Source of the DNA: a phage
DNA: 64,000 bases
Sequence record: PZ452612.1
Strand: one strand, 5' to 3'
The notes beneath the pieces were generated by a model that worked only from the letters and a program-made list of their open reading frames with translations, was not told where the DNA came from and did no database searches. How positions within the stretch are numbered: position 1 is the stretch's first letter; the number at the start of each line of letters is the position of its first letter. Shown here piece after piece: positions 1 through 42,051 of this stretch. A program made the translations under genes and the position numbers.

Positions 1-1098
1 TGCTAACCCGTTTTTAGATAATTGACGTTTATAATATCTTTCACAATATGTACACGTCGTCCCGCAGATTTCATTAGCACAATCGAAATCTGGATGTCTG
101 AACCACCTTTTTTCTAAAAAGCCATCTAACAAAGAGGTTTCAATATTTACTGTATGTGAAAACTCAGTTTCGTTTTCAAGAGTGAAAATAGTCTCTAAAG
201 GCTTCCACAGTTCTAACAAATTACCTTCAAACTTTTCAGAAGCGTATGCTTCAAGAACTTTCAAAATGTAGTCTGTGCTACCTGTACGTCCTGAAACTTT
301 GAATTGAGTGATACCAATATCATTATAAAGTTTCAAATCTTGAGGACGAACAAAACGAGTTCTCAACCAGTTAAATGGGTCTGTATCACGAGCTTTAATA
401 CAGTGCTGCATAGGATATCCGTTTAAGGATTTAGCATCATCAGCTGTAACATCAGTACTATGGAAAATATAGCAAGAGTCACGATAGCTACAATGTGTTG
501 TATACCCTTTACCAGCATTAGAACAGAACTCATTTACAAGAACTTCAAATATTATATTGTTCTTATTGCAAAACTCTGCTGCACGCTTCAGGAAAGAAAC
601 TGAACGGTTCTTATGAATTCCACAGCAGACCTTTTTGATATTATACTGGTCATGCAAGTATTTGATTTGAGTTACAGCATCGACATGTAGAATTGTTGAA
701 ACTTCAATCTCAATGTCTTTATTGACTTCACGAACAATTTCCATAACAACAGGGTTAGCGATAGTAATACGCCATACGCCTATTGACCAAAGATACTGAA
801 CATAATCCTGAATAGCTTTCTTCTTCCACCCAACTAGTTCTCTTTTTGAACCAGGATTTATCGTGTTGAGTGTATAGTTAAAGCAAATACCTAATTCGTT
901 ACAACGTTTAACGTAATCTTCTAACATCTTTTTGTCAACGTCAGGAAGCCTAAAATCAGGTCTGGCTGCTACAAAAGCCATTTCTCTTGTAGAGCCGTAT
1001 ACTTCGTTTATCAAGCTATTAGGATAAGTTTTATTGAGCTCTACGATTTTATCAAGAAGAGCTAAATCAAAATTCGTTCCAATTTTAAAAGTATTCAT
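1..1098 (-). CDS. Hypothetical Cys-rich protein, partial (C-terminus runs off the window start); contains CX3CX2C near the visible end
   Basis: Manual reverse-complement translation from ATG at 1098: MNTFKIGTNFDLALLDKIVELNK...DFDCANEICGTTCTYCERYYKRQLSKNGLA, open to position 1. Not in the ORF track because it is open-ended. No family recognised. Confidence 0.5.
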   Translation of the reverse strand, partial: MNTFKIGTNFDLALLDKIVELNKTYPNSLINEVYGSTREMAFVAARPDFRLPDVDKKMLEDYVKRCNELGICFNYTLNTINPGSKRELVGWKKKAIQDYVQYLWSIGVWRITIANPVVMEIVREVNKDIEIEVSTILHVDAVTQIKYLHDQYNIKKVCCGIHKNRSVSFLKRAAEFCNKNNIIFEVLVNEFCSNAGKGYTTHCSYRDSCYIFHSTDVTADDAKSLNGYPMQHCIKARDTDPFNWLRTRFVRPQDLKLYNDIGITQFKVSGRTGSTDYILKVLEAYASEKFEGNLLELWKPLETIFTLENETEFSHTVNIETSLLDGFLEKRWFRHPDFDCANEICGTTCTYCERYYKRQLSKNGLA

Positions 1099-1154
1099 TT
1101 TTTTGCATCTCACGTTAATTGATGCGATGGTTTTTGCAGGTCTTACTTAAATTA

Positions 1155-1541
1155 TTATAGATTCGGTTTATATGATTTAAATGTTTCGAATTCGCCTTTA
1201 TTCATAAGAGCTTTGAATTCGTCAGGACGCATAGCTTTGTCGTCGATAATCCAATCATATACTGGTTTATGTGTTAGCAAATTATGGTACTTCAAACCAA
1301 TGTTTTCCAAGTTCTGAATCAGACTTGGGAGAATGTCAATTGCTATACGACCAGGACCTACTGACTTCATACCGCGAGCAGTGTAAAGCGTTATGGTATG
1401 CCCTGCATCATACAGGGCATTAATAGCAGTCACCATTTCGACGTCTGGTTTGAAGTTCACGTAATCACGATTGTTATTCCACTCTGTTATACAATCATCG
1501 ACATCAAAACAAAGATTAAGCATGTTTTCTACACGGTGCAT
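1155..1541 (-). CDS. HAD-superfamily phosphatase-like protein
   Basis: DxD motif FDVDDCIT near the N-terminus and a later IIDDKA motif fit HAD motifs I and IV. Start placed at the internal Met whose ATG overlaps the upstream stop (TAATG coupling); the track ORF extends to 1556. Confidence 0.5.
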   Translation of the reverse strand: MHRVENMLNLCFDVDDCITEWNNNRDYVNFKPDVEMVTAINALYDAGHTITLYTARGMKSVGPGRIAIDILPSLIQNLENIGLKYHNLLTHKPVYDWIIDDKAMRPDEFKALMNKGEFETFKSYKPNL

Positions 1542-3226
1542 TAGATTCGTTCCCATTGATGAGTGATATCGCCACCGATTGGACGATAAGAAACACCAGT
1601 TTCTTTATCAGTTAGTACCCATTTACCAGGATTTTTTGTAATCAGAGTAGCCGTTACAGGTTCTGCTACGTCATAACTAATAGAGCCGTCCTGAAGTACA
1701 CGGCCCATGTTACGTAATTGCTTAGTCAGAAGTTCCATACCTTTATAATATGCGGCTACCGCTTTAAGTGGATTATTCTTGAAATAACCACCTAATGCAA
1801 TCCAGATAATTGCTACAGCCAAATGATGATACTCGTTAAACGAACTCATCTTTCCATATTTGTAAACTAATGGATTGATGTTAATAGTCACATTACAAGT
1901 TGTTTCGTCAATAGTAAACTGTCCCCAGGTCGGATTAGCGTTGAATTCATCATAACCTGAAACAGCATAAAGCACTTTAGCTTCATCATACAATTTTGGC
2001 CCGTAAATCTTGGTTTCGCCAAAATATCCACGAGGGTCGATAAACTTGACTTCGCCGTTATCAGTAATCATAGTATTACTGAAGTTCGGGTCACCGTGAA
2101 TAACAGAGTACTGTCCCTGAGAACGGGTATGATAACGAATAAGATGTTCTAAAGCTTGCTTCAGCATTGGCTTCAGACGTCCAATCTTAGTGTAGTTCAC
2201 GTGTGTGATTTTACCAAATGAATCAATCAATGGCTGAATGCTTTCACAACGATCAATAACTTTCGTATAGAACTCTTTAGTGAAATCACGGCGAACAGTT
2301 TCAGGACTTACAAAATAAGTGTCTGTGCTGAATTTCAGTGCATCTAAAATTGCATCAACAATTTGTGGACGAGCAAGACTTGATTTGGATTTAATATATT
2401 CAAATGCTGGCTTACCTTTAATACGTTCCATTTCAAAATTATTTTCATTTACCGAAACTAACTGAGGAACTGAATCTGATTTCACTTTCAAATACCATGA
2501 AATCTCATCTTTTTGAAGAGCTCGACCTTGTTCGGTTAACGCGAATTTAGTTACAGTTTCTTCGCCAATTTCAACTGCATTAAAACTACGATTAAGTTCA
2601 CGAACTTCATGAGCTTTTTCAAGTTTAGGCATATCACCTAAATCAATTAGATTCATAAGCTCTGATTTATTGAATGCACTGCCGTAAAGGAATTCTACGA
2701 AATCACGTCCTTTGCAGTATTCATGAATTTCCTCATCAGTAGAACCCATGTAGAATTCCCAGTCTTTGAACTGATAAATTCCTACAACATTACCGCCTGT
2801 TGAACCTACGTTAGTGATATTTTCACCATCGAAATTATATCGACATTCATCACCCTTAACATAGATTGCGTTAACATTCCAAGACCATGAACCAAAATCA
2901 GGAATAATATCACACCAGTTAACAATTACGTTATGGCCATCTAAATCTTTGTATAATTTAGCAAGAGCATAAGCAGAACCATACGCTTCATCAACTGTAC
3001 GAATAGTCACATTGAACCCTTCTTGCTCGCAATAAGCTCGAACAGTTTCAGCAAATTTTGAATGAACTACTACAATAATTTCATCTGCGCCAAGGTCAGA
3101 ATAAATTGTATACAAATTGCTCAGAATAGTGTCTTGTTTATAGTTAACAAGAACTTTTGGAATATGATGCGTTATTGGATACAAACGAGTTGCCAGTCCA
3201 GCACCAAGAATAACAGCTTTTTTCAT
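1541..3226 (-). CDS. Bifunctional sugar-1-phosphate nucleotidyltransferase (N-terminal) / sugar kinase (C-terminal, APH/choline-kinase-like)
   Basis: N-terminus MKKAVILGAGLATRLYP matches the GxGxR loop of NTP-transferases. C-terminal half has IHGDPNFSNTMITDNGEVKFIDPRGYFG, an HGD...N...ID catalytic loop typical of phosphotransferase-fold kinases. 561 aa. Confidence 0.6.
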   Translation of the reverse strand: MKKAVILGAGLATRLYPITHHIPKVLVNYKQDTILSNLYTIYSDLGADEIIVVVHSKFAETVRAYCEQEGFNVTIRTVDEAYGSAYALAKLYKDLDGHNVIVNWCDIIPDFGSWSWNVNAIYVKGDECRYNFDGENITNVGSTGGNVVGIYQFKDWEFYMGSTDEEIHEYCKGRDFVEFLYGSAFNKSELMNLIDLGDMPKLEKAHEVRELNRSFNAVEIGEETVTKFALTEQGRALQKDEISWYLKVKSDSVPQLVSVNENNFEMERIKGKPAFEYIKSKSSLARPQIVDAILDALKFSTDTYFVSPETVRRDFTKEFYTKVIDRCESIQPLIDSFGKITHVNYTKIGRLKPMLKQALEHLIRYHTRSQGQYSVIHGDPNFSNTMITDNGEVKFIDPRGYFGETKIYGPKLYDEAKVLYAVSGYDEFNANPTWGQFTIDETTCNVTININPLVYKYGKMSSFNEYHHLAVAIIWIALGGYFKNNPLKAVAAYYKGMELLTKQLRNMGRVLQDGSISYDVAEPVTATLITKNPGKWVLTDKETGVSYRPIGGDITHQWERI

Positions 3227-3267
3227 GTTGTGGTCCTCATTGGTAAGTAGGTGTATTGTACACTATT

Positions 3268-3411
3268 CTAGTTAAAGCATTCATACTTTGCTTGTAGTCC
3301 AATCATAATCCATCCAATTACAAGTGTTGGAATCATTACTGGAGCCGTTAAGCTCCAGTAGATAGTCATGACAAGCATCAATAGTAAAAGTCCTATTGTT
3401 ATTGCTTTCAT
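3268..3411 (-). CDS. Small hydrophobic protein (47 aa), translationally coupled to the upstream isomerase gene
   Basis: Manual translation MKAITIGLLLLMLVMTIYWSLTAPVMIPTLVIGWIMIGLQAKYECFN; its ATG overlaps the stop of 3408..4043 (ATGA). Sits where T4 has imm/imm.1, but no sequence match is claimed. Confidence 0.3.
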   Translation of the reverse strand: MKAITIGLLLLMLVMTIYWSLTAPVMIPTLVIGWIMIGLQAKYECFN

Positions 3412-4043
3412 TGTTCGCCTCGTAACATGGCACCTAGTGCACCGCCTGGATGGAACTTAAGAAAGTCATTAGAGGTAAATCCACGTTCAGACGAAAGGTT
3501 GATAGCAAACGTATCGATAAGCGCTAACAACAATGTAGTGGACATAGTCGGAGCCAGAGAATTCTCATCAACCTCTACCGCGATGCCTGTACAGAAAGAG
3601 TAATCAAAAAGGGCTTCATTTTCTTGCGGAATGTCTGGGTTACAATGCAACAGAATCTGTTTGACATTTGGACGAATCATTTTAAGATGCTTAGCCACGC
3701 CTATCATTTCTTCAGTCTTACCAGAACGACTAATATGAATCAACACATCATTAGGCGCAATGAATCCTGCATCACCGTGAGAATAATGCCCAGTGTTCAA
3801 GTACATACTCGGGATACCGAGTGAAGCAAATGTCTCAGAAGCTTTAGTTGCAATATTAGCATTCTTACCAACACCTGTAATAATTACTCGGCTTTCATAA
3901 TTACTAAGTCCAGGGCGTCGAAGAGTTTCTAGAATAGCATTATAACGAGCAGGGTTTTGACTAATTACTTTGGCCATAGCGGCCAAAGAAGAAGCTTGTT
4001 TTATGATTGCGTCAATAGCGATAGTAATAGGAGTAGTTTTCAT
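3408..4043 (-). CDS. SIS-domain sugar-phosphate isomerase (arabinose-5-phosphate isomerase / phosphoheptose isomerase-like)
   Basis: 211 aa with VIITGVGKNANIATKASETFASLGIP, a SIS phosphosugar-binding signature. Lies directly downstream of gene 43. Confidence 0.6.
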   Translation of the reverse strand: MKTTPITIAIDAIIKQASSLAAMAKVISQNPARYNAILETLRRPGLSNYESRVIITGVGKNANIATKASETFASLGIPSMYLNTGHYSHGDAGFIAPNDVLIHISRSGKTEEMIGVAKHLKMIRPNVKQILLHCNPDIPQENEALFDYSFCTGIAVEVDENSLAPTMSTTLLLALIDTFAINLSSERGFTSNDFLKFHPGGALGAMLRGEQ

Positions 4044-4083
4044 ATTTCTCTCATTTAATTAGTTTACCGTCCATGACATTATA

Positions 4084-6795
4084 TCAAAAATCGAACATAT
4101 CGAACAGAGATGCTTTCTTCTCGTAATCGAGTTTCGCTGCTGATGTGAATCCTTCAAGTGGTTTAATAAATGTCTTCTCAAGGAGAACAGTGTAGTCCAT
4201 CCAATGAAGTACGTCATCTTTAATTAAATCTGTGATTTCAGTACCAGAAGGCCATGCGATACATTTATCACCGAACGGGTTTCCTTCACGTAAAGGCAGA
4301 ACATATACTTTTTCACCTTCTACAACTTGTGGAGCATCAATATTACCTTTGATAGCTCTGTTATATGTCAGAATTCCACGAATATGGAACGGACATTTAG
4401 GACCAGGGAATCCACCTACATCATATTTAGCAATGTTATTCGCAGAAGATACCGACGCGATGCTAATATAATTCAATTGACGGAATTCTTTTTCAAACTC
4501 TTTAAAATATTCTTGTAATGATTCTTCACCTTCTTGAAGCATACGACGAATACATTCTTTAAGAGCTTTCTGTACTGCTTTAGGGGTCGAAGATTTCTGA
4601 GTCTCTAGACCCATGATTTTGAGTTTAGGCTCAGCGTAACGAGTACCTTCCATATCCCACACGTTTAATGCGTAACGTTTCTTACCAGTCCAGAATCCAC
4701 CAATACCTTTAGAACCGAGCGGAGGACCAGCGATAGCTTCTCGGTCCATGAACATTAAGTGTTGTTTATTGTTCATGTATTCACACATTTCACGGAAACC
4801 TCTATCAATAGCAGGTTCCATACGTTCACGAGCGAACTTATCTAAGAAGTCTACCCAATGGTTGGTATCACGGAATTTAGATTCACCAACCTTATCGATA
4901 ATTTTATCAGCAGATACGTAAATAGAGTCTGTATCACCATAAAGAACGAAAGCTTCACCTTCTGTACCACAAACTTCGTTCAGATATTCATTAACTTTAC
5001 GTTCAATCCACTGTAAAGCCATTTGACCAAATGTTGTGATTGCAGTAGCATTACGCAAATCGTAATAACGGAACCAAACGTTGCCAAGTGCACCATAAAG
5101 TGAGTTGATAAGCAATTTACGGTTAATTTGTGCAGTCATACCTGCAACTTCAGTACGTTGAGCTCTAAACAACATTTCATTAAGAGATTTAGCAGACAAC
5201 TTTTTAATCTTTTCTTTAATCTCGTCAGTGAAGTCGAAACGATAATCAACATCTAATGGTTCGTCAACAGAAAGATTAGGATTATGCAACGCCTCTTTAA
5301 TTATTTCACCATTACGTTGAGCCGCAAGCATATAACCTTTATGTTCTTTACGTTGATTAAAGACCTTAGTGATTTCAGTTGGAACTACACCATCACGGTC
5401 TTTATAATACATCATGCCATTAGGAGAACAACTGTACACATCTGAAGGACGTTCAGCGATTGCGTTAATATAATCATGCAGTGGAGCTACTTTAAACGTT
5501 CCTGCTATTGTTTCCGGGCTAATATTCACTTGGCGAATAATACTTGGATACAGAGATGTAAGGTCGAAACTCATTACATATTTGTATCGATTTGGAATAG
5601 GTTCCTTAACAAAAGCGCCAGGATAAGGTTGAACCGGGTGAGAACGACCTTGTGGAATCACCTTGTTCTGCTCTTTAAGGCTATTAAAAATAATAGCATC
5701 CCATGTTTTAATTGGGCTAAACACAGATTGAATCTGTATCTTAGCATAATAACCCATGTCCAAACTCAAGTTGATGAACTGACGCTTAGCATCAATTTGC
5801 AATACACGATACACGTCGATAATGTTATAAGAAATATATCGTTGGTGATTGCTTTCACGAAGCTTAGAAATAGGGCCGTCATATTTCAGTTTACCAACGT
5901 TCAATTCAAATTCTGAAATGTAATCTAGAGAATACGACGGTTGATTGGTAAAAGAGAATTTTTTGTAAAGGTCGATATAATCAAGAACAGAGATACCGAA
6001 CAATGTAATGATTTCACGAGAACCATACATGTTTTCGATAACTTTAACACGAGTTTTACGATGCGGTGATAAACGTTTCGCAGTAGATTCGCCAAAAATA
6101 TTCTTGATTCGGTTATACACATATGGAATATCAAATGACTCAACGTTCCATCCAGTCAAAATGACAGGAGTTTTCTGTTGCCAGAAGTTGAGATATTCCA
6201 TCAACAATTCTTTTTCGTTATCGAACGGCATATAAATGATTTTATCGATAATTTCAGATGGAACTTCATCACCGCCTTGTTCTTGAAGCTTAGCAGCGAT
6301 TTCAATAGACCATTCTTCTACATTACCATATGGAGAATTCAATAGATCAAATACGTAGAACCTGTCGTCAATTGAGTCATAATGGGTGATAGCATCAATC
6401 GGATGTTTTGCTTGTGATGGCTCAGGGAACCCATCCGGAGATGTTACTTCGATGTCGAAGTTAGCCACACGAATTTTTGTATGGTCGTATTTGATTTCAT
6501 AGTTATAAGTGTCAGACAAATACGCCAATTTGAAATCGTCCATGCCAAGTGCTTCAAGTCCGATATCTTCCATGCGTTTAATCCATTGGGAGGCATCACG
6601 CATATTAGCGAACAACTTACGAGTACACGGCTTACCGTAGATATCGAAATATTTCGTAGCCTGACTTTCCGGACAATGAGCAAACAGTGATGGTTTATAT
6701 TCTACTTCACGAGTACGTTCACGGCCATTAGAATCGATGTAACGTTCAAAAATTGAATCACCAATCTGTTCAACCGTTAAGTAAAATTCTTTCAT
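4084..6795 (-). CDS. 43: DNA polymerase (family B), gp43
   Basis: 903 aa, MKEFYLTVEQIGDSIFERYIDSNGRERTREVEYKPSLFAHCPESQ... Contains exo motifs (FDIEV, YNIIDVYRV) and pol motifs (DTDS, KKRYA). Matches the RB69 gp43 sequence as recalled. Confidence 0.97.
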   Translation of the reverse strand: MKEFYLTVEQIGDSIFERYIDSNGRERTREVEYKPSLFAHCPESQATKYFDIYGKPCTRKLFANMRDASQWIKRMEDIGLEALGMDDFKLAYLSDTYNYEIKYDHTKIRVANFDIEVTSPDGFPEPSQAKHPIDAITHYDSIDDRFYVFDLLNSPYGNVEEWSIEIAAKLQEQGGDEVPSEIIDKIIYMPFDNEKELLMEYLNFWQQKTPVILTGWNVESFDIPYVYNRIKNIFGESTAKRLSPHRKTRVKVIENMYGSREIITLFGISVLDYIDLYKKFSFTNQPSYSLDYISEFELNVGKLKYDGPISKLRESNHQRYISYNIIDVYRVLQIDAKRQFINLSLDMGYYAKIQIQSVFSPIKTWDAIIFNSLKEQNKVIPQGRSHPVQPYPGAFVKEPIPNRYKYVMSFDLTSLYPSIIRQVNISPETIAGTFKVAPLHDYINAIAERPSDVYSCSPNGMMYYKDRDGVVPTEITKVFNQRKEHKGYMLAAQRNGEIIKEALHNPNLSVDEPLDVDYRFDFTDEIKEKIKKLSAKSLNEMLFRAQRTEVAGMTAQINRKLLINSLYGALGNVWFRYYDLRNATAITTFGQMALQWIERKVNEYLNEVCGTEGEAFVLYGDTDSIYVSADKIIDKVGESKFRDTNHWVDFLDKFARERMEPAIDRGFREMCEYMNNKQHLMFMDREAIAGPPLGSKGIGGFWTGKKRYALNVWDMEGTRYAEPKLKIMGLETQKSSTPKAVQKALKECIRRMLQEGEESLQEYFKEFEKEFRQLNYISIASVSSANNIAKYDVGGFPGPKCPFHIRGILTYNRAIKGNIDAPQVVEGEKVYVLPLREGNPFGDKCIAWPSGTEITDLIKDDVLHWMDYTVLLEKTFIKPLEGFTSAAKLDYEKKASLFDMFDF

Positions 6796-6807
6796 TTAAT
6801 TTCCTTT

Positions 6808-6823
6808 AGACGAGTTATTGTCT
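6808..6823 (-). promoter_or_regulatory. Putative gp43 translational operator hairpin (stem AGAC/GUCU, 8-nt loop AAUAACUC) just 5' of the gene 43 Shine-Dalgarno
   Basis: mRNA reads AGACAAUAACUCGUCU AAAGGAAAUUAA AUG. The loop sequence and position match the T4-type gp43 autoregulatory operator architecture. Confidence 0.5.
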
Positions 6824-6853
6824 TTTGTTTGTTGATGAACTTATTATACTCCA

Positions 6854-6873
6854 AATGGGACCGAAGTCCCATT
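6854..6873 (-). other. Stable hairpin (AUGGGAC-UUCG-GUCCCAU) immediately after the regA stop, followed by GGAGUAUAAU
   Basis: Perfect 7-bp inverted repeat with a UUCG tetraloop seen in sequence; no long U-tract follows. Confidence 0.4.
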
Positions 6874-6876
6874 GCT

Positions 6877-7245
6877 TTAATTACCAATTGTATATTTTGC
6901 TTTCAAAGTCCAGTCATCTTTCTGTTTAAAAGAGATAACACGGAAGTTATTAGTCAGGCCAAACAGATCTTCACGAGCAGAGTCTTCAATAACAATCAAT
7001 CCCCAGTCTTCAAGCAACTGAGCAATCGAATCACGTCGCTGATAGTCTTCACCATCAATATCAACCTGACGTCCGTCCATACGCAGCATTTCTTTAAAGT
7101 GGACGATGTAATATTTACCTTGCTTTTGGAGGATATGACAAGACTGGTAAAGGACTTTATCCTTGTTATTAGCGATGCCCATACGGGTTAGAGTCTCTTT
7201 GACTTTCAGAAAATCTTCAGGGTTCTTCAATTTAATTTCAATCAT
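6877..7245 (-). CDS. regA: Translational repressor RegA
   Basis: MIEIKLKNPEDFLKVKETLTRMGIANNKDKVLYQSCHILQK... matches T4 RegA as recalled; syntenic between 62 and 43. Start taken at the internal Met. Confidence 0.85.
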   Translation of the reverse strand: MIEIKLKNPEDFLKVKETLTRMGIANNKDKVLYQSCHILQKQGKYYIVHFKEMLRMDGRQVDIDGEDYQRRDSIAQLLEDWGLIVIEDSAREDLFGLTNNFRVISFKQKDDWTLKAKYTIGN

Positions 7246-7247
7246 TT

Positions 7248-7811
7248 TTACCATTCCAATGCTAATTTTTTAAATTGTTTTTGTTCTTTTACGTTTTTAG
7301 TAACTTCTTTGAGAAATTCATCAGTGACCATGGCCTTCAGTTCTTTAAGGACTATTGGCAGCTTGTTATTTTTTTCAAGGAGCCGCTTATACTCGGTAGC
7401 ATCATTCATGTTGATTGTGTAATGTTTCATCAACAGTTTGATAACTAGTAACTCTGAAGTGTCTTCGACTAGTTTAGCCCATTTAGAGAATCGACGACCA
7501 CGCGGAATTGCCGCCATCATATAGTTGAAGTGCGCTTCATCACTTAATTCAGAACCGACTAAGTTCATCATGTAAACGGCTGGCATACATTCTGGAAACT
7601 GGGATAACGAGTTCTCAACCATAAATTTTGAGTAGTCGACCTGAGCAATTGACATAGATTTCTTTTCATTAATAGCATTAATGATTTTAAAGAATTCATT
7701 CTCAGGTTTTTCTTTAAACATATCAGCACATTTTTGAATCGCATCAGCGTCATTAGACTTCCATGCAATTTGGTGCTCGTTAAGCTGGACGTCATCATCG
7801 AATAAGTTCAT
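7248..7811 (-). CDS. 62: Clamp loader small subunit gp62
   Basis: 187 aa, same length as T4 gp62; position between 44 and regA. Confidence 0.8.
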
Positions 7812-7812
7812 A

Positions 7813-8775
7813 TTATTTCCAAGTCAGTTCACAGGTCAGTTGAAGAAGCATATACATAACATGTAATTCAATATTACTTGCTAGTCCATGAAACTTATTA
7901 TTTTCGCCTGCAATTTCGTAAAGCGAAATAATACTTTTACCAGGTGCAACTTGGTCATAACATTCTGAAACTAATTTATCTATGAACCATGAATAATCTG
8001 CAGCATATTTTGGAGCTAATGCACGAAGTTGTTTGATATCTTTGTTCTTCATTGCTTCGATAACATCAGAGACTGTGCCACGGTCATTAGTTACGATAGA
8101 CAGAATACCTGCATCAAGAACACCTTTAGACGAGTACTGGTCTAATTGGCCAATTGTACGACGAAAGTCTGGGAAGTTCTTTTTAACCAGAGCTGCAACA
8201 ACTTTCATATCAGCGATTTCGATATTTTCGTTCTTACAGATTTCAACCATACGATGAATCATTTTCTTCATCATCGAGATTTTATCTTCTTCAGTCGGAC
8301 GACCGAATTCTATAACTCGACAACGGCTACGTAATGGTTCAATAATTCCATCAATGTTGTTGGCAGTAATAATAATAGAACAGTTACTAGAGAATTCTTC
8401 CATAAACGTACGAAGGTGACGTTGTGATTCGGCGAGGCCACTACGGTCAAATTCATCAATAACAATAACTTTAGGCTTGCCTTCCATTGAGACTGAACGA
8501 GCGAATGCAGTTAACGGACCACGCACAAAATCAATCTTACAATCAGAACCGTTGACGAACATCATTTCGGCATTGATATCATTACATAATGCTTTTGCTA
8601 CGGTTGTTTTACCTGTACCAGGAGAAGGAGAGTGCAAAATAATATGAGGAAGTTTTCCTTTAGATACTAAAGACTTGAATGTTTCATGGTCATACGCAGG
8701 CAGAATACATTCGTCAATGGAAGAAGGACGATATTTCTGTTCTAGAATGTGTTCTTTGGAATTGATAGTAATCAT
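7813..8775 (-). CDS. 44: Clamp loader large subunit gp44 (AAA+ ATPase)
   Basis: 320 aa; Walker [11 protein letters not shown], Walker [12 protein letters not shown] motif. Confidence 0.9.
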
Positions 8776-8850
8776 GTAATTTTCCTCATTATCATTAAAC
8801 TGGAGGATTTCTCCTCCATAATCGTATCACATTAAACGTAAATCTTTGTC

Positions 8851-9537
8851 TTAGAAGTCGTGAGTAGAATCGGCTTCCATTGCAATAACATAACTTACTT
8901 GAGAGCTTTCAAACTTGGCTGCAACTTTATCACCAGCTCCCCACAACATTACTTTATAGTTACCTGGCTGGATTTTCATATTAGCCATATTGATTACAAA
9001 GTTAAAGTTATTAGAACCATCATAATCGGTAAGAGTCAAAGAATACTTAGGACGAGTTAGTCCGGAATCTTCAACTTTATTGTAACCGTTGATAACAATT
9101 TTACCATCTTTATTTGTAATAGCAATTGTATCAATCTGGAGACCACGTGAAACTCGAAGCAATTGTTGAAGGTCTTCAGCTTTAATTTCAGTAATCACAG
9201 AAGCCACCGGGAATTGAATTGGCTTATTAGGAAAAACAATGGTGCTCTTGTCGGCAGCAGGCCAATAAACTGTGGAACGTGTATCTGCAATTTTAATATT
9301 GCCATCGGTGTGCATTGAAATTTCAGCATCATCAGACACTAGACTCAAAATGCTTAAGAAGCTATTCAAATCATAAAGTGCTACGTCAAAATCAATTTCA
9401 TCGGAGATATTTGCTTCTGCATAAGTGGTGCCATTAACTGCACGGGTCATAATAAATTTACCTTGACTCAGCAGAATGCCGGAGTTAATAGAGGCAAAGT
9501 TTTTCAGAATAGCGATAGTATCTTTAGACAGTTTCAT
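8851..9537 (-). CDS. 45: Sliding clamp gp45
   Basis: MKLSKDTIAILKNFASINSGILL...EADSTHDF matches T4 gp45 as recalled; start at internal Met. Confidence 0.9.
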   Translation of the reverse strand: MKLSKDTIAILKNFASINSGILLSQGKFIMTRAVNGTTYAEANISDEIDFDVALYDLNSFLSILSLVSDDAEISMHTDGNIKIADTRSTVYWPAADKSTIVFPNKPIQFPVASVITEIKAEDLQQLLRVSRGLQIDTIAITNKDGKIVINGYNKVEDSGLTRPKYSLTLTDYDGSNNFNFVINMANMKIQPGNYKVMLWGAGDKVAAKFESSQVSYVIAMEADSTHDF

Positions 9538-9579
9538 TTTATTTCCTTTCAAGACAATTCAAAGTTTATAACAAATTTA

Positions 9580-9996
9580 TTATGCAGCAACCATCTGCTT
9601 TTTAATAGCTTCAGGCAGTGATTCAATATATTCTGGAATTTTAGAAGCAACAATTTCGCCAGCTGCAATTAATTGTTCATCGGCATCAACACAGTAGAAA
9701 TCTTCCAGACGCTCAGAACCATCTTTATCAAGAACGATTTTTCCACCTGCTTCAATAGAATCTTTATAGTGCTTACGCATCAGATGAATCCACATATCAG
9801 ATACATCGTTATCAATAAAACCATAAATCATAAAACGAGTTTCTTGTGGCAAAGATTGAAGCTTTTTAGCACTTGCGTCATCACAATGCAGGACCCATGC
9901 TTTACGAACACGATTATGGTTATGCGGGTTAGCGTCAGTACGGATAGAAGTAACTTTCAGATCAGCAGCAGTGAAACCTTTAGCAGTAGTAAACAT
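9580..9996 (-). CDS. rpbA: RNA polymerase-binding protein RpbA (by synteny)
   Basis: 138 aa ORF between 45 and 46, the T4 rpbA slot. Confidence 0.55.
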   Translation of the reverse strand: MFTTAKGFTAADLKVTSIRTDANPHNHNRVRKAWVLHCDDASAKKLQSLPQETRFMIYGFIDNDVSDMWIHLMRKHYKDSIEAGGKIVLDKDGSERLEDFYCVDADEQLIAAGEIVASKIPEYIESLPEAIKKQMVAA

Positions 9997-10008
9997 ATTA
10001 TTTCTCTC

Positions 10009-10209
10009 TTATTCGTAGAAGTCAGTAACTGTCCATGCGGAATTGCGATTAGACATTATTTTATTATACTCATCTTTAAAAGCAGATTTGAGCATTTGTT
10101 CAGTAACAATATGTTCTTCACCTGAAAACGTATTGGTCAAAACATATTTTTTAATTTCAGGGACAACAAGAAGATGTTGTCCGGTTGAATACTCCATGTT
10201 GTTCTCCAT
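10009..10209 (-). CDS. Hypothetical small protein
   Basis: 66 aa ORF between 46 and rpbA. Confidence 0.4.
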   Translation of the reverse strand: MENNMEYSTGQHLLVVPEIKKYVLTNTFSGEEHIVTEQMLKSAFKDEYNKIMSNRNSAWTVTDFYE

Positions 10210-31244: not shown

Positions 31245-31274
31245 ACTATAACATAGTCCTACCAAGATGTAAAC
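31245..31274 (-). promoter_or_regulatory. Early-type promoter (GTTTAC -35, 18-bp spacer, TATAGT -10) embedded in a perfect 10-bp-arm palindrome GGTAGGACTA-N8-TAGTCCTACC
   Basis: Minus strand reads GTTTACATCTTGGTAGGACTATGTTATAGTAGTCCTACC; the palindrome spans plus 31237..31264. Confidence 0.5.
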
Positions 31275-37520: not shown

Positions 37521-37850
37521 TTATACTCTAGGCTTTTGAGCTTGTTTGGTATTGGATTCCCATGCGGCTTTGGTAATTTTGTTAGTGGCATAACCAAAGG
37601 CATTAGATAGAACACCTTTAGAGTTGAATACATCCAATCCAATAAGTACACCGGCTGTGTTAAATTTAGGAGCAAAGTACGCATTAGTTTTAGAAAGAGC
37701 TTTTTTCAATTCAGGGTCTTGAACCAAACCATCAAAAACGCCTTTACTATTTACTTTATATGTTACTTTGGGATTTTTACCTTCTTCGATAGCAGCTTTC
37801 TGTTCCGCAGATAATGTAACTTCAGTGATAAACTCCTGATATGTTTTCAT
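37521..37850 (-). CDS. Internal (capsid-packaged) protein with N-terminal capsid-targeting sequence
   Basis: Starts MKTYQEFITEV, the conserved T4 internal-protein targeting leader; 109 aa, Lys-rich. Confidence 0.7.
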   Translation of the reverse strand: MKTYQEFITEVTLSAEQKAAIEEGKNPKVTYKVNSKGVFDGLVQDPELKKALSKTNAYFAPKFNTAGVLIGLDVFNSKGVLSNAFGYATNKITKAAWESNTKQAQKPRV

Positions 37851-37858
37851 TTTGTTCC

Positions 37859-38272
37859 TTAGTAAATTGATTTACCATAGTATTTGTACCAAGTCGGACG
37901 TTGAGCAATTTTTTCATCTAAGCGTGCTTGACTTATCGCAATGGACGCTTCGGACGGGACGTAATTATTACGAAATTCTACAGGAATGTCGGAAATATCC
38001 TGGACTGTCGTGTCCTTGATTTTGAAACCACGTTTCAAGCATTCGGCGATTAGCTCGATTTGACGTAAACGTAAAAATTCGAGTTTGTCGTAAAAGAATG
38101 TTACGTGACCTGTGCCTAAGATAAATGTTGGAGAGATTTTAAAATCCTTTACACGTTTACCGTTTTGAACATGTTTACGGACTGCACCAAATACGCGTGG
38201 TAATTCACGATACTCAGCCATAAGATGTTGGTCGGACAGTTCAGAAACAAGTGTTAAATTGATACGAGTCAT
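37859..38272 (-). CDS. denV: Endonuclease V (pyrimidine dimer DNA glycosylase) DenV
   Basis: [35 protein letters not shown]...[12 protein letters not shown] matches T4 endo V as recalled. Confidence 0.9.
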
Positions 38273-38299
38273 AATTTCCTCCAAGTAGTTGATGAATGT

Positions 38300-38329
38300 A
38301 TAGTATCAAAACTCTTGGAGGAAGTAAAC
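38300..38329 (-). promoter_or_regulatory. Early-type promoter (GTTTAC -35, TACTAT -10) upstream of denV
   Basis: Minus strand reads GTTTACTTCCTCCAAGAGTTTTGATACTAT. Confidence 0.4.
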
Positions 38330-38330
38330 A

Positions 38331-38612
38331 CTATTTTTCTGAAGCGCCTGAAATATATTTTTCAAGACGTTGTTTCATCAGCGAGCCGTTCTTAGCGATT
38401 TCTTCCGGTTTATCGCACATACGCAACAAGGCTTCAAGCTTAACGATATCACTGGTGCGCTCAAATTTGCGAGTATCTATCTTACTGGCAAGTTCAGAAA
38501 TACGTGCTAATAGACTTTCAGCTTCAACCAAAGCTGCACCTAGCTTAGTTGCAAATGTGTCAGTAGCTTCGTTAAGAATAGATTCTGATAAAAATTCACT
38601 ATATGTTTTCAT
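38331..38612 (-). CDS. Internal protein (capsid-targeting leader MKTYSEFL)
   Basis: Start at the internal Met; ATG overlaps the stop of gene e. Confidence 0.6.
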
Positions 38613-39097
38613 ATATACGCTTTCCAAGTTCCTGTTTTAAATGTTGAGATTACGCGTTTCGCTCGATTAGGTGTCTGACGGTACCATTTAGATTGGGCTA
38701 GATTTACTGCCGCTTCATCCCAACGTTTCTGTTGAAGCATACGAAGAGAATTAGTAAAACCAGCGACGCCTGCTACACCCATTTGGAAGACCATATTGAC
38801 CAATGCACATCGACGAACCGCATCTAAAGAATCATATACCGGTTTAAGTTTAGCATTACCCAAGATTCCGCGAACGGCTTTATCAACGTCTTCATTAAAT
38901 AGCTTTTCAGCCTCATCAAGGGTAATTGTACCGTTGCATTTACGTCCGATCATTCTGTCAAGTTCAGCTTTAGCTACGGCTAAAGACGGGTTCTTTGTTA
39001 CTAAATGGCCTATGCCAATCGTCCAAAAGCCTTCAGTGTCTTTGTATAAAGTCAGTCTAAGACCTTCGTCATTACGAAGCATTTCAAATATATTCAT
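38609..39097 (-). CDS. e: Endolysin (T4-type lysozyme) e
   Basis: [32 protein letters not shown]... matches T4 lysozyme as recalled, with the catalytic Glu and Asp in EMLRNDEG / YKDTEG. Confidence 0.9.
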
Positions 39098-39131
39098 AAT
39101 ACCTCCCACGTTTATAGGAGGTATTTATTAC

Positions 39132-39590
39132 TTATAGGATGGTAGTGAGCACCTTATATAATGATTTACCCATTACATATTCCCATTGAGAAGGTTTAAT
39201 TAAAGCGAATGCATCAAATTCAGGAATCTGTCGTCCGTCTGGGAATGTATGATAGGAATTACAAACACTGTTTCTGAATTGCTCGTGCTCTACAGGGATG
39301 GTATATAGGAACAGATGAATATTCTTATTGTCTGAGTAATGATGTTCACCTAGGTCTTTCAGGAAGGCAGGGTCATATTGTGTAAACCCAGTTTCTTCTT
39401 CGCATTCACGAATAGCGGCTTCAATAGGAGATTCGCCAGGTTCGACACGGCCTTTAGGAATATCCCACCGATGAGTTAATGCACCTTTAGGACGAGAACC
39501 AGTTACACGCCCCATGAATAACTCTTTATCTTCGGTAAGGAAAATAATACCGGCTGATAGCTCTTTCACTTTATTTTTCTTACTCATCAT
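39132..39590 (-). CDS. nudE: Nudix hydrolase NudE
   Basis: Nudix box GRVEPGESPIEAAIRECEEETG; 152 aa. Confidence 0.8.
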   Translation of the reverse strand: MMSKKNKVKELSAGIIFLTEDKELFMGRVTGSRPKGALTHRWDIPKGRVEPGESPIEAAIRECEEETGFTQYDPAFLKDLGEHHYSDNKNIHLFLYTIPVEHEQFRNSVCNSYHTFPDGRQIPEFDAFALIKPSQWEYVMGKSLYKVLTTIL

Positions 39591-39831
39591 CTCGGTCCCA
39601 TGATTTGGCCATTAATTCGGACATAAATTCTTCAATGCGCGTTTCTTTAGATGGACTTTCACTATTAGAGACCGCAAGTTTGTAATCTGCAATAGGACAG
39701 AACATATCAAGGTCCGTATTAAGGTCGTCTTTGATTTTTTCTTCTGACACATCTTTATCGTATGTGTACAGATAACTATCACATGATTCTGATTTAATGT
39801 AAATTGCTATACTCATCTCAAATTCCTGCAT
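39580..39831 (-). CDS. Hypothetical acidic protein
   Basis: 83 aa ORF. Confidence 0.4.
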   Translation of the reverse strand: MQEFEMSIAIYIKSESCDSYLYTYDKDVSEEKIKDDLNTDLDMFCPIADYKLAVSNSESPSKETRIEEFMSELMAKSWDRDDE

Positions 39832-40304
39832 TCGGTAATAAAACGTTCAACTTCATTATTCTTGGCCTTTATCTTGTCTTTATGTTCTTGTAAACTACTT
39901 TTAATAAGATTAATAATGATGGCGGCGGTACCGCCGCCAATGATGCCACCAACAACACTTATGATACTAGATGCTAATAAGATAGCAATAATATCAACAA
40001 AACTGAAAGAACTCACCTTAGTACTAAAAAACCATACCGACGGTGCAAATATAATCCATCCTGTTATCCATTGGCACTTATTGAAAAACTTTTCAAGATC
40101 AGCTTGAGTTGTTCGTATTACTTCATCGATAGGTTGATATCCATTAATGTATCTGTTCACAATAATACCTGCTGGCTGGTCGATTTTAAATTCTTGGCAA
40201 ATACGTTTCACTAAGTAGGATGGACATCCTGTCCAATCTACTGAATAGTATGAAATACCTTCATTGCCATCGTCTATATTAGACCAATATGTTTTGTTAA
40301 TCAT
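39813..40304 (-). CDS. Membrane protein
   Basis: 163 aa; hydrophobic segments WITGWIIFAPSVWFF and IIAILLASSIISVVGGIIGGGTAAIIINLI. Confidence 0.45.
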   Translation of the reverse strand: MINKTYWSNIDDGNEGISYYSVDWTGCPSYLVKRICQEFKIDQPAGIIVNRYINGYQPIDEVIRTTQADLEKFFNKCQWITGWIIFAPSVWFFSTKVSSFSFVDIIAILLASSIISVVGGIIGGGTAAIIINLIKSSLQEHKDKIKAKNNEVERFITECRNLR

Positions 40305-40990
40305 TACCAGCCTTCCATAGGGAATTCCAGATAAACTTGGGTATTGACACGAATTTCATTGGTAATCTTTTTAACTCGGTCTGTATTACGAGATACACGT
40401 CCGAACCAACGCCATCCATTACTAATTGCACGAGAACCAGTGTGCCATGTTTGCCAATCAAACTGAAGAAGAGTACGATCTGGAGCTTCCCATTTCTCTA
40501 GTTCGCCTTTTTCGATTTTTTCGAGGACTTCTTTGTGCCACTGGCGATAGATAAGTTCGCCATCAGGAATCTGACTGAACTCTGCAGTTCCTGTTGCAAA
40601 ATGAGTAGGACACACATCAGCGTTAACAAGACCAAGAATATGTTCAGACAAATAGCGAGGATTGTCATAGTCAGGTTGTCCTGCAGTAATAAAATGTTGA
40701 CCAACCGGAATATCCGGGCGTGGTACGTCATCATGGTGATAACCAGGAATAGCAGGATACCAACCAGGCATCAGCATATGGACTCGTGAATCAAATACTA
40801 CATCCGAGTCTTTCCAATCGTCAGGGAGATTTTGGATAAAGCTACGAGTAATTGGACCGCCGTTATCAAAAGCAAAATTCAAATCGCAATTAAAGAACAT
40901 AGGCTCGTTTTTAATCTGGTCATTTTTAATCGCATGAGCAAAACCACCTACTGCACGAGCTTGACTATTAAACACTTTAGAACTATTCAT
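40304..40990 (-). CDS. Hypothetical protein
   Basis: 228 aa ORF; no motif recognised. Confidence 0.45.
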   Translation of the reverse strand: MNSSKVFNSQARAVGGFAHAIKNDQIKNEPMFFNCDLNFAFDNGGPITRSFIQNLPDDWKDSDVVFDSRVHMLMPGWYPAIPGYHHDDVPRPDIPVGQHFITAGQPDYDNPRYLSEHILGLVNADVCPTHFATGTAEFSQIPDGELIYRQWHKEVLEKIEKGELEKWEAPDRTLLQFDWQTWHTGSRAISNGWRWFGRVSRNTDRVKKITNEIRVNTQVYLEFPMEGW

Positions 40991-40991
40991 A

Positions 40992-41297
40992 TTATTTTCC
41001 TCGACATTCTTTAATGAAATTTTCTAGATTGGTAGATTCAATAGCTTTTTTACGAGCTTCTGCGTGTTCTTCTTCAGACAATTTACATTTATAATTGACC
41101 CAGACGTTATGGTCGAAACTAGTCGTGGCATATAATAACAATGCTCCAACGAATAGCAAAAACGGCGATAAGAATACAAAACCAGGAACACCATCCATAC
41201 TGTAAGCCTTTTGTAATACTGCAACAGAAAGAGCTGCGTAAAAAAGTGATACAAATATTGTTAAAAGACCAATTCGGTTGGTTTCGCCTAATTTCAT
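40992..41297 (-). CDS. Small membrane protein
   Basis: 101 aa with two hydrophobic helices. Confidence 0.45.
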   Translation of the reverse strand: MKLGETNRIGLLTIFVSLFYAALSVAVLQKAYSMDGVPGFVFLSPFLLFVGALLLYATTSFDHNVWVNYKCKLSEEEHAEARKKAIESTNLENFIKECRGK

Positions 41298-41325
41298 AAT
41301 ATTCTCCTCATGTTTTAATAGGACT

Positions 41326-41355
41326 ACTATAACATAGTCCTATCATCATGTAAAC
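41326..41355 (-). promoter_or_regulatory. Early-type promoter (GTTTAC -35, 18-bp spacer, TATAGT -10) inside palindrome ATAGGACTA-N8-TAGTCCTAT
   Basis: Minus strand reads GTTTACATGATGATAGGACTATGTTATAGTAGTCCTAT. Confidence 0.5.
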
Positions 41356-41357
41356 TA

Positions 41358-41621
41358 TTAAATACCAGCTTCGCGTTTAACATAATCGACGTAAGCTTGG
41401 ATAGCTTTCTTGCTGGTAATTTTTACCTGGCCACGACCATTGCCTTCTTTAGAGTTTTTCTTAACAACTACATTACCATCTTTAACACCCCATACATGGA
41501 CGTAAGTACCGATGTTTCGGTCGTAGAACATTGCATGGTCATTGTTGTAAGAGAATGATTCATAGTTCTCTGTCAAAGCAAAAGATTCGGATTCTGCGAT
41601 AAATTCTTTATACGTTTTCAT
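41358..41621 (-). CDS. Internal protein (capsid-targeting leader MKTYKEFIAE)
   Basis: 87 aa; N-terminus matches the T4 internal-protein leader. Confidence 0.7.
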   Translation of the reverse strand: MKTYKEFIAESESFALTENYESFSYNNDHAMFYDRNIGTYVHVWGVKDGNVVVKKNSKEGNGRGQVKITSKKAIQAYVDYVKREAGI

Positions 41622-41653
41622 TTATTTTTCCGTTTGGTTGTTTTGATAGGACT

Positions 41654-41683
41654 ACTATAACATAGCCCTATCAAGATGTAAAC
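41654..41683 (-). promoter_or_regulatory. Early-type promoter (GTTTAC -35, 18-bp spacer, TATAGT -10) inside palindrome GATAGGACTA-N8-TAGCCCTATC
   Basis: Minus strand reads GTTTACATCTTGATAGGGCTATGTTATAGTAGTCCTATC. Confidence 0.5.
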
Positions 41684-41686
41684 TAC

Positions 41687-41974
41687 TTACAGAAGAGTTT
41701 TTGCAATAATTTTAAGCTGAGCTACAGAAATATGCTTAGCTTTAAACAGTGCGGTCTCTTCAGCCGGAGAGATAACAATAGTAGCGCCATCTTTCTTAGC
41801 AGACCATCCATCCCCTAAGTAAACAGTACCTTTTACTTCTTCGCCGTCAACCAGACTAATCATTGGTTTACCCTCACGTCCTTTATTTGCTTTAATAACT
41901 TCGGAAGTAAGGGTTGCTTCGGTCAGAGTAGAAACGTTAGCAACAGGTGATATAAATTCTTTATAGGTTTTCAT
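41687..41974 (-). CDS. Internal protein (capsid-targeting leader MKTYKEFISP)
   Basis: 95 aa; leader as above. Confidence 0.65.
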   Translation of the reverse strand: MKTYKEFISPVANVSTLTEATLTSEVIKANKGREGKPMISLVDGEEVKGTVYLGDGWSAKKDGATIVISPAEETALFKAKHISVAQLKIIAKTLL

Positions 41975-42051
41975 TTTATTTCCTTGAGGTTGTTTATTTG
42001 ATAGGATGATAGTATCACACCATCATACTTATGTAAACTGTTTTGTGAAAA

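Follow-up and report, generated by a model that had tools for sequence, protein, structure and literature searches.

Candidate internal-protein genes at the two T-even ip loci of an RB69-like Mosigvirus, including an IPI ortholog

Introduction

The internal proteins (IPs) of phage T4 carry an N-terminal capsid-targeting sequence (CTS). The first ten residues of T4 IPIII suffice for head targeting and the ten residues of the leader package foreign proteins in T4, with residues 4 and 7 weighing most in targeting and residues 8 and 10 in processing, and gp21 cleaves after the Glu of the motif L/I-x-E (PMC9026906). Each of the T4 proteins Ip1, Ip2 and Ip3 inhibits a GmrSD variant of its own, with no cross-protection, and GmrSD variants have been proposed as the targets of every gene in both ip loci (Silas et al., 2025; PMC12373910). 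RB69 IpI, which has 'four residues different' from that of T4, is reported to protect RB69 from GmrSD restriction (PMC6024577). Here, we describe four genes with such a leader, all on the minus strand, between positions 37521 and 41974 of a phage DNA stretch of 64,000 nucleotides (PZ452612.1; hereafter the window). We put at about three in four the probability that these genes, which occupy both canonical T-even ip loci, make up the internal-protein set of an RB69-like Mosigvirus.

At 100% identity, the window corresponds to Escherichia coli O157 typing phage 6 (KP869104 / NC_041864, 160,570 bp), an RB69-like phage of the Straboviridae, Tevenvirinae, genus Mosigvirus; identity to RB69 is ∼96–98% over most of the surrounding region. 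The genome is public, and the protein class, the leader, the loci, the cassette-like variability and the anti-restriction role are all already established. Modestly new are a leaderless form of one of the protein bodies, the repeats around its gene, an 8.2 kb deletion and the differences in IP sets between relatives.

Leader, processing sites and loci

The initial annotation had four open reading frames (ORFs) starting with MKTY(Q/S/K)EF at 37521..37850, 38331..38612, 41358..41621 and 41687..41974, and all four were recovered with these ends. In a six-frame scan they are the only MKT[YF].EF matches in 64 kb (four observed versus 0.0014 expected from composition), and a looser pattern adds none. 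In map order they encode ip109 (109 residues, MKTYQEFITE), ip93 (93 residues), ip87 (87 residues, MKTYKEFIAE) and the product of ipI (95 residues, MKTYKEFISP). Tyr4 and Phe7, which satisfy the targeting pattern of Tyr or Phe at position 4 and Phe at position 7, are present in all four proteins. At the DNA level, the leaders constitute a family of 30-nt repeats (D1; 73–90% identical), within which the codons vary synonymously at Thr3 (ACA/ACA/ACG/ACC), Glu6 (GAG/GAA) and Ile8 (ATC/ATA); the peptide itself is therefore conserved. Beyond the leader the bodies had been described as diverging completely, correctly so: with the first ten residues removed, BLASTP gave no match at E < 0.1 among the four, nor between them and T4 IPII/IPIII, RB69 124c/125c/149c/156c or ime09 Ip4. 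The window holds no IPII or IPIII homolog.

Each protein has an L/I-x-E motif that would close a propeptide of 10–19 residues: ITE10, LSE10 and IAE10 in the three non-IPI proteins and LTE19 in IPI. The former three have a second site, IEE23 in ip109, LNE15 in ip93 and LTE18 in ip87. In the Ip5 family, to which ip93 belongs (see below), only the E15 site is conserved (ITE15, cut as ITE|S, in T2 Ip5; variant P0008 lacks E10), and RB69ORF123c, the ortholog of ip109, lacks E10 and keeps IEE23. Because the second sites are kept where E10 is lost, the real propeptides may be 15–23 residues long, within or near the published range of 10–19. Calculated isoelectric points (pI) of the mature proteins are 9.7 (ip109), 9.0 (IPI), 8.9 (ip87) and 6.3 (ip93).

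Judged by gene order in T4 and RB69, two of the four genes are in the e/denV locus and two in the 57B/ipI locus, the classical sites of T-even internal-protein genes. The first reads e (lysozyme), ip93, denV, ip109, vs.8 and the second 57A, 57B, ipI, ip87, so that every one of the genes lies where CTS-bearing internal proteins are encoded. According to the record annotation, the genes for the head maturation protease (gp21), scaffolding, portal and capsid proteins are in the same genome outside the window (protease and scaffolding at record positions 114360–116272), and the prohead protease gp21 and gp22 scaffold core that belong with CTS-bearing internal proteins are thus predicted to be present. 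Leader, protease sites, loci and the homologies described below together support internal-protein genes with the T4 capsid-targeting sequence, as the initial annotation had proposed.

The IPI ortholog

The gene at 41687..41974 encodes a predicted propeptide of 19 residues, MKTYKEFISPVANVSTLTE, followed by a 76-residue mature protein, IPI*. Residues 20–95 match positions 1–76 of the Pfam profile PF11634 (IPI_T4) with an E value of 1.3e-50 and 169.7 bits, against a gathering cutoff of 25, so that family membership extends over the whole mature domain; RefSeq labels the protein 'internal virion protein / nuclease inhibitor'. The same residues are identical to the solved IPI* structure (PDB 2JUB) at 72 of 76 positions. 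Over its full length, the protein is 88% identical to T4 IpI and 100% identical to RB69 IpI. Judged by these matches, it is a true ortholog of IPI, the known GmrSD inhibitor.

The three uncharacterized proteins

The ip93 frame extends mechanically to a TTG at 38627; the ATG at 38612 was used, as in RefSeq, where the product is an 'internal head protein'. This ATG overlaps the stop codon of the lysozyme gene e (38609..39097, minus strand) in the sequence ATGA, and ip93 is probably expressed with e because of this overlap. The protein matches phrog_3499 ('internal head protein') with an E value of 1.2e-46 and is 47.6–51.2% identical to T2/PP01 Ip5 over residues 1–84 (tblastn, E = 1e-14 to 2e-17). 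This homology is full-length and includes the propeptide, which makes ip93 a member of the Ip5 family. Matches occur in 497 phage records, and many genomes of Tequatrovirus and Mosigvirus have an identical or near-identical copy beside e.

A separate observation concerns RB69ORF127c (positions 5994–6275 of the compared RB69 stretch), the leader of which, MKTYMNFYQNLSLNE, results from a 1-nt deletion and, some 24 nt further on, a 1-nt insertion, so that codons 5–12 are out of frame relative to ip93 (38331–38612). If genuine, the pair of changes is a compensated frameshift that abolishes the capsid-targeting sequence; otherwise, it reflects a sequencing error in AY303349, such errors having been reported for RB69 genes 46/47.

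The ip109 protein is 97% identical to RB69ORF123c and belongs to phrog_3966, in which no function is assigned; its 91 phage records are almost all 'hypothetical'. A homolog beside denV in Dhakavirus WG01 is only 35% identical and keeps the leader (MKTYQQFITE).

The ip87 protein belongs to phrog_13302, again with no function assigned, and all of its 36 phage records are 'hypothetical'. Its body is a member of a family of ∼67–73 residues that occurs without a leader in the early-gene hyperplastic regions of distant T4-like phages: in Dhakavirus IME341 between gene 52 and motA (AWD91942; 66% identity; 2495–2716 of the compared stretch), in Klebsiella Marfavirus pzk-kv8 (1507–1710 of the compared stretch) and in Aeromonas Tulanevirus Aes508 between rIIA and gp39 (1489–1704 of the compared stretch). 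All of these are annotated as hypothetical proteins. The family is marked by the motif H-x-M-x-(Y/F) ... Y-(V/I)-H-V-W-G ... K-K, and the predicted cut at LTE18 of ip87 would free almost exactly the leaderless domain. The pattern looks like the gain of a leader by a cytoplasmic accessory protein that already existed, or else the loss of a leader by such a protein. Since the domain occurs leaderless in early regions and the cut after E18 would free the same domain, the body would be a soluble intracellular effector rather than a part of the head.

A HMMER search with the ip87 body gave four matches, of which two were new: one is a leaderless 72-residue protein, and the other, a weak match to a repetitive 1331-residue protein, was regarded as spurious. 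That ip87 is a diverged IPI was rejected (hhalign probability 0.08%). For ip109, ip93 and ip87, neither Pfam nor NCBIfam gave a match (IPI_T4 was found for the IPI ortholog alone), and sequence matches to the PDB were at chance level, as were those of the ip87 family profile. Homolog searches of 5.8 billion proteins returned just 2, 2 and 5 clusters.

Promoters, repeats and cassette exchange

The ip93 gene has moved between genera. Compared with the copy in Tequatrovirus ime09, it shows 100% protein and 97.5% DNA identity, while the flanking genes of ime09 are only 81.6% (e), 72.1% (denV) and 61.0% (nudE) identical to those of the window, from which we infer that the cassette was recently exchanged between genera with different DNA modifications. 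Elsewhere, RB69, NicPhage, ime09 and WG01 hold different leader-bearing genes in the same slots: the position of ip109 is taken by a 125c-type gene in NicPhage and by Ip4 in ime09, and RB69 has seven leader-bearing ORFs (123c, 124c, 125c, 127c, 149c, ipI and 156c, the last of the Ip7 family).

Both ipI and ip87 are preceded by a T4-early-type promoter set in a stem-loop, with GTTTAC as the −35 box and GATACTAT or TATAGT as the −10 box. The one upstream of ipI (41990..42045, minus strand; GTTTAC ... GATACTAT) has a weak stem-loop with a predicted fold of −9.7 kcal/mol (z −1.4). The other lies between ipI and ip87 (41633..41688, minus strand), has a 13-bp stem with TATAGT in the hairpin (−18.0 kcal/mol, z −4.8) and is of the early-promoter/stem-loop (PeSL) type, as is a third element downstream of ip87 (41305..41360, minus strand; −18.4 kcal/mol, z −5.2). 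The ip87 gene is thus flanked by 47-nt direct repeats (D2) that are 91% identical, one copy being at 41311–41357, and each repeat consists of an early promoter with its −10 box within a 12–13-bp hairpin. PeSL-like sequences have already been tied to both IP loci (Arbiol et al., 2010; PMC2839356). At the other locus, a promoter scan found an early-type promoter (GTTTAC ... GATACTAT) upstream of denV (38285..38335, minus strand). This promoter probably also drives ip109, because ip109 starts 8 nt past the denV stop codon and has no promoter of its own. A late-promoter-like sequence, AATAAATA, matching at seven of eight positions, lies upstream of e.

The third PeSL element is also a deletion junction. 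The near-identical sibling typing phage 3 has ∼8.2 kb (∼2024–10139 of the compared stretch) that is missing here, and the crossover lies inside two PeSL copies (core GATAGGACTATGTTATAGTAGTCCTAT), the alignments to phage 3 overlapping by 54 nt at 41292–41345. Lost with this segment are the trna.x ORFs, the transfer RNA (tRNA) genes tRNA-Met and tRNA-Arg and homologs of e.3–e.8 and RB69ORF134c–137c. The deletion explains why the window has no tRNA genes, why the two ip loci lie within 3.5 kb of each other and why the genome is 160,570 bp long compared with 168,733 bp for phage 3. Mosigvirus NRG-P0074 has a different join at the position of 41292–41345.

Further copies or variants of the GTTTAC...stem-loop early promoter are found on the minus strand at 31274, 31723, 35376 and 27103, that at 31274 having a nearly identical core; this distribution suggests a PeSL family dispersed through the early-gene region. 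With conserved leader DNA and PeSL-type repeats as the cassette boundaries, ip genes could be swapped, lost and gained by homologous recombination, even across genera.

Between the two loci, a homolog of RB69ORF132c is encoded on the minus strand (40304–40990; 228 residues). In Mosigvirus NRG-P0074 this ORF carries the annotation 2OG-Fe(II) oxygenase; Pfam gave no match to it here, and T4 lacks it.

Proposed role and alternatives

By analogy with T4, from which packaging, cleavage and injection are inferred, each protein would be made with the CTS, which would dock it on the prohead scaffold core (gp22); gp21 would then cut after the Glu of L/I-x-E and remove a propeptide of 10–23 residues, and the mature protein of 7–11 kDa would stay with the head DNA and be injected before any phage gene is expressed. 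Mature IPI would block the CT596-type GmrSD type IV restriction enzyme. The most likely role of ip93, ip109 and ip87 is that of injected inhibitors directed at other host defenses; other GmrSD subtypes would be the lead candidates, the choice of targets being speculative.

An anti-defense role of such proteins reportedly figures in the work of Repoila in 1994 on polymorphic T-even internal proteins (ip4–ip13), and Rao and Black are said to have stated it in 2010. The suggestion in the initial annotation that the diverse bodies are injected anti-defense effectors agrees with the current literature (PMC3012670; PMC12373910) and by the same token is not new, since Silas et al. (2025) propose it for all ip-locus genes.

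The further suggestion that these effectors are tuned to the DNA modification of this phage found no support. Mosigviruses have arabinosylated 5-hydroxycytosine (PMC13326640; PMC13390438), and RB69-type arabinose-pathway genes lie beside the DNA polymerase gene 43 at 1–4043 of the window, on the minus strand. This sugar cluster upstream of gene 43 comprises a KpsF-like SIS-domain protein (3408–4043, minus strand), a 561-residue nucleoside triphosphate transferase (1541–3226, minus strand) and a 'phosphoheptose isomerase' (1155–1541, minus strand), and no α-glucosyltransferase gene was found between genes 47 and 55; the predicted functions of the cluster fit arabinosylated cytosine DNA. The same internal proteins occur in phages of the genus Tequatrovirus, which is reported to glucosylate its DNA (PMC13390438): IPI differs from T4 IPI* at only four of 76 mature residues and ip93 is identical in ime09, and tuning is therefore unsupported. 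In the three IP cases that have been tested, specificity is for the host GmrSD subtype (PMC12373910).

Several observations weigh against packaged anti-defense proteins. The 200 nt preceding each of the four genes contain no exact late promoter (TATAAATA), as also holds for T4 ipI, ipII and ipIII. Mature ip93, with its pI of 6.3, is not basic, unlike classical T4 IPs. The literature searched contained no virion proteome of a Mosigvirus, so that packaging and cleavage of ip109, ip93 and ip87 are predictions. AlphaFold2 models of ip87 and ip109, each from a three-sequence alignment, have a mean predicted local distance difference test score (pLDDT) of 51.6 and 46.9, respectively, and give no functional hint. 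When ip4–ip10 from T4-like phages were assayed, none reproducibly inhibited the GmrSD variants tried (PMC12373910, supplementary Fig. 9); going by the numbering, one of them should be an Ip5 and so belong to the family of ip93. Finally, the Mosigvirus NicPhage, whose IPI and ip93 each have one substitution and whose ip87 is 95% identical, is restricted by the GmrSD-family enzyme BrxU (PMC13390438), so that these three proteins do not overcome BrxU in that assay.

These last two results bear most on the view that the three uncharacterized proteins are injected but act on something other than GmrSD, such as other defenses, or in host takeover like the packaged ADP-ribosyltransferase Alt. The wide occurrence of the leaderless ip87 domain in T4-like phages of Aeromonas and Klebsiella points the same way, if only suggestively. 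Set against this are the three out of three functionally solved T4 IPs that hit GmrSD enzymes, the large diversity of GmrSD, of which just ∼15 classes were tried, and the GmrSD genes of E. coli O157:H7 itself: strain FRIK2069 has genes of the CLS_001 and CLS_005 classes (A8V30_28740/32140 and A8V30_28770/28775) flanking hsdRMS. On balance we consider non-GmrSD targets possible, with a probability of about one in four.

It is improbable that the proteins are mainly structural or DNA-associated components of the head core, serving charge neutralization or head morphogenesis with no anti-defense role. Mature ip109, ip87 and IPI are indeed basic, like T4 IPII and IPIII, and T4 IPIII mutants show head-assembly aberrations (PMC9026906), but the gene sets vary between nearly identical phages, which is unsuited to a structural need, ip93 does not share the charge, the ip87 body occurs elsewhere as a leaderless early-region protein and IPI, IPII and IPIII all have defined defense targets. 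Least likely is that the shared 5′ end of some of the genes is mainly a DNA recombination and translation-initiation module and that the proteins are not packaged: the D1 repeat does reach past the ATG into the upstream ribosome-binding region, and the compensated frameshift of RB69ORF127c ruins the leader peptide and keeps the DNA, but that frameshift may be a sequencing error, as for RB69 genes 46/47, the codons change synonymously under a constant peptide, which indicates selection at the protein level, the distant WG01 homolog of ip109 keeps its leader, and ten leader residues are enough to package foreign proteins in T4 (PMC9026906).

A tentative history for ip87, to which we give a probability of about one in four, is leader capture: a leaderless early protein of the kind found in Dhakavirus, Marfavirus and Tulanevirus would have gained an 18-residue CTS propeptide in Mosigviruses and moved into the ipI locus, and the ip87 family, ip109 and ip93 would jointly be new injected inhibitors of defense nucleases acting on arabinosylated cytosine DNA. 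A post-injection effector would thereby have become a pre-loaded one, the CLS_001 and CLS_005 GmrSD enzymes of E. coli O157:H7 would be candidate targets, and the leaderless relatives would constitute a widespread and unrecognized anti-defense family. Independently of this, ip109 and ip87, hypothetical in all or nearly all records, can be reannotated as candidate internal proteins; ip87 offers a natural pair, the same domain with and without a leader, that bears on why an effector is pre-loaded rather than expressed early; and the IP set of the O157-typing phages is a shortlist to be set against the GmrSD genes of O157:H7. Of the leads, only possible leader capture by ip87 and the GmrSD candidates of O157 are worth pursuing.

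Comparison with known systems

The closest counterpart is T4 IPI, with which the protein encoded at 41687–41974 shares the length of 95 residues, a 19-residue propeptide ending in (I/L)TE|ATL (LTE|ATL here and ITE|ATL in T4) and the place beside 57B. The mature proteins differ by four substitutions (I/V, A/V, H/Q and N/T), the leader is more canonical here (MKTYKEF versus MKTFKEF), and the cytosines of the DNA would be arabinosylated, whereas those of T4 are glucosylated. T4 has 57B and ipI at the second locus and e, ipIII, ipII and denV at the first. The products of ipII and ipIII, IPII and IPIII (Ip2 and Ip3), which inhibit GmrSD-ECOR21/BrxU and GmrSD-ECOR17, have the leader MKTYQEFIAE and the e/denV locus in common with the genes described here; in their bodies they resemble none of the four proteins. 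The layout of an early promoter and stem-loop upstream is the same for T4 ipI, ipII and ipIII.

The leader and E15 cleavage motif of T2/PP01 Ip5 align with those of ip93, which differs in location: ip93 is coupled in translation to e at the e/denV locus, whereas T2 ip5 adjoins 57B. The ip109 and ip87 proteins are small, carry the leader and an L/I-x-E site and are encoded in an ip locus, features that they share with the Ip class, and match none of the named Ips. The repeats resemble the PeSL mobile cassettes of T4-type phages, in which early-promoter/stem-loop repeats likewise surround a small accessory gene (PMC2839356; Comeau, 2014, PMC4122927) and in which recombination between two copies has produced a deletion, as here. 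The copies in this phage are of the T4 early-promoter type (GTTTAC at −35), with an AT-rich 12–13-bp stem that contains the −10 box, in place of the σ70-consensus promoters and GGGG/CCCC stems described for RB49 and phi1.

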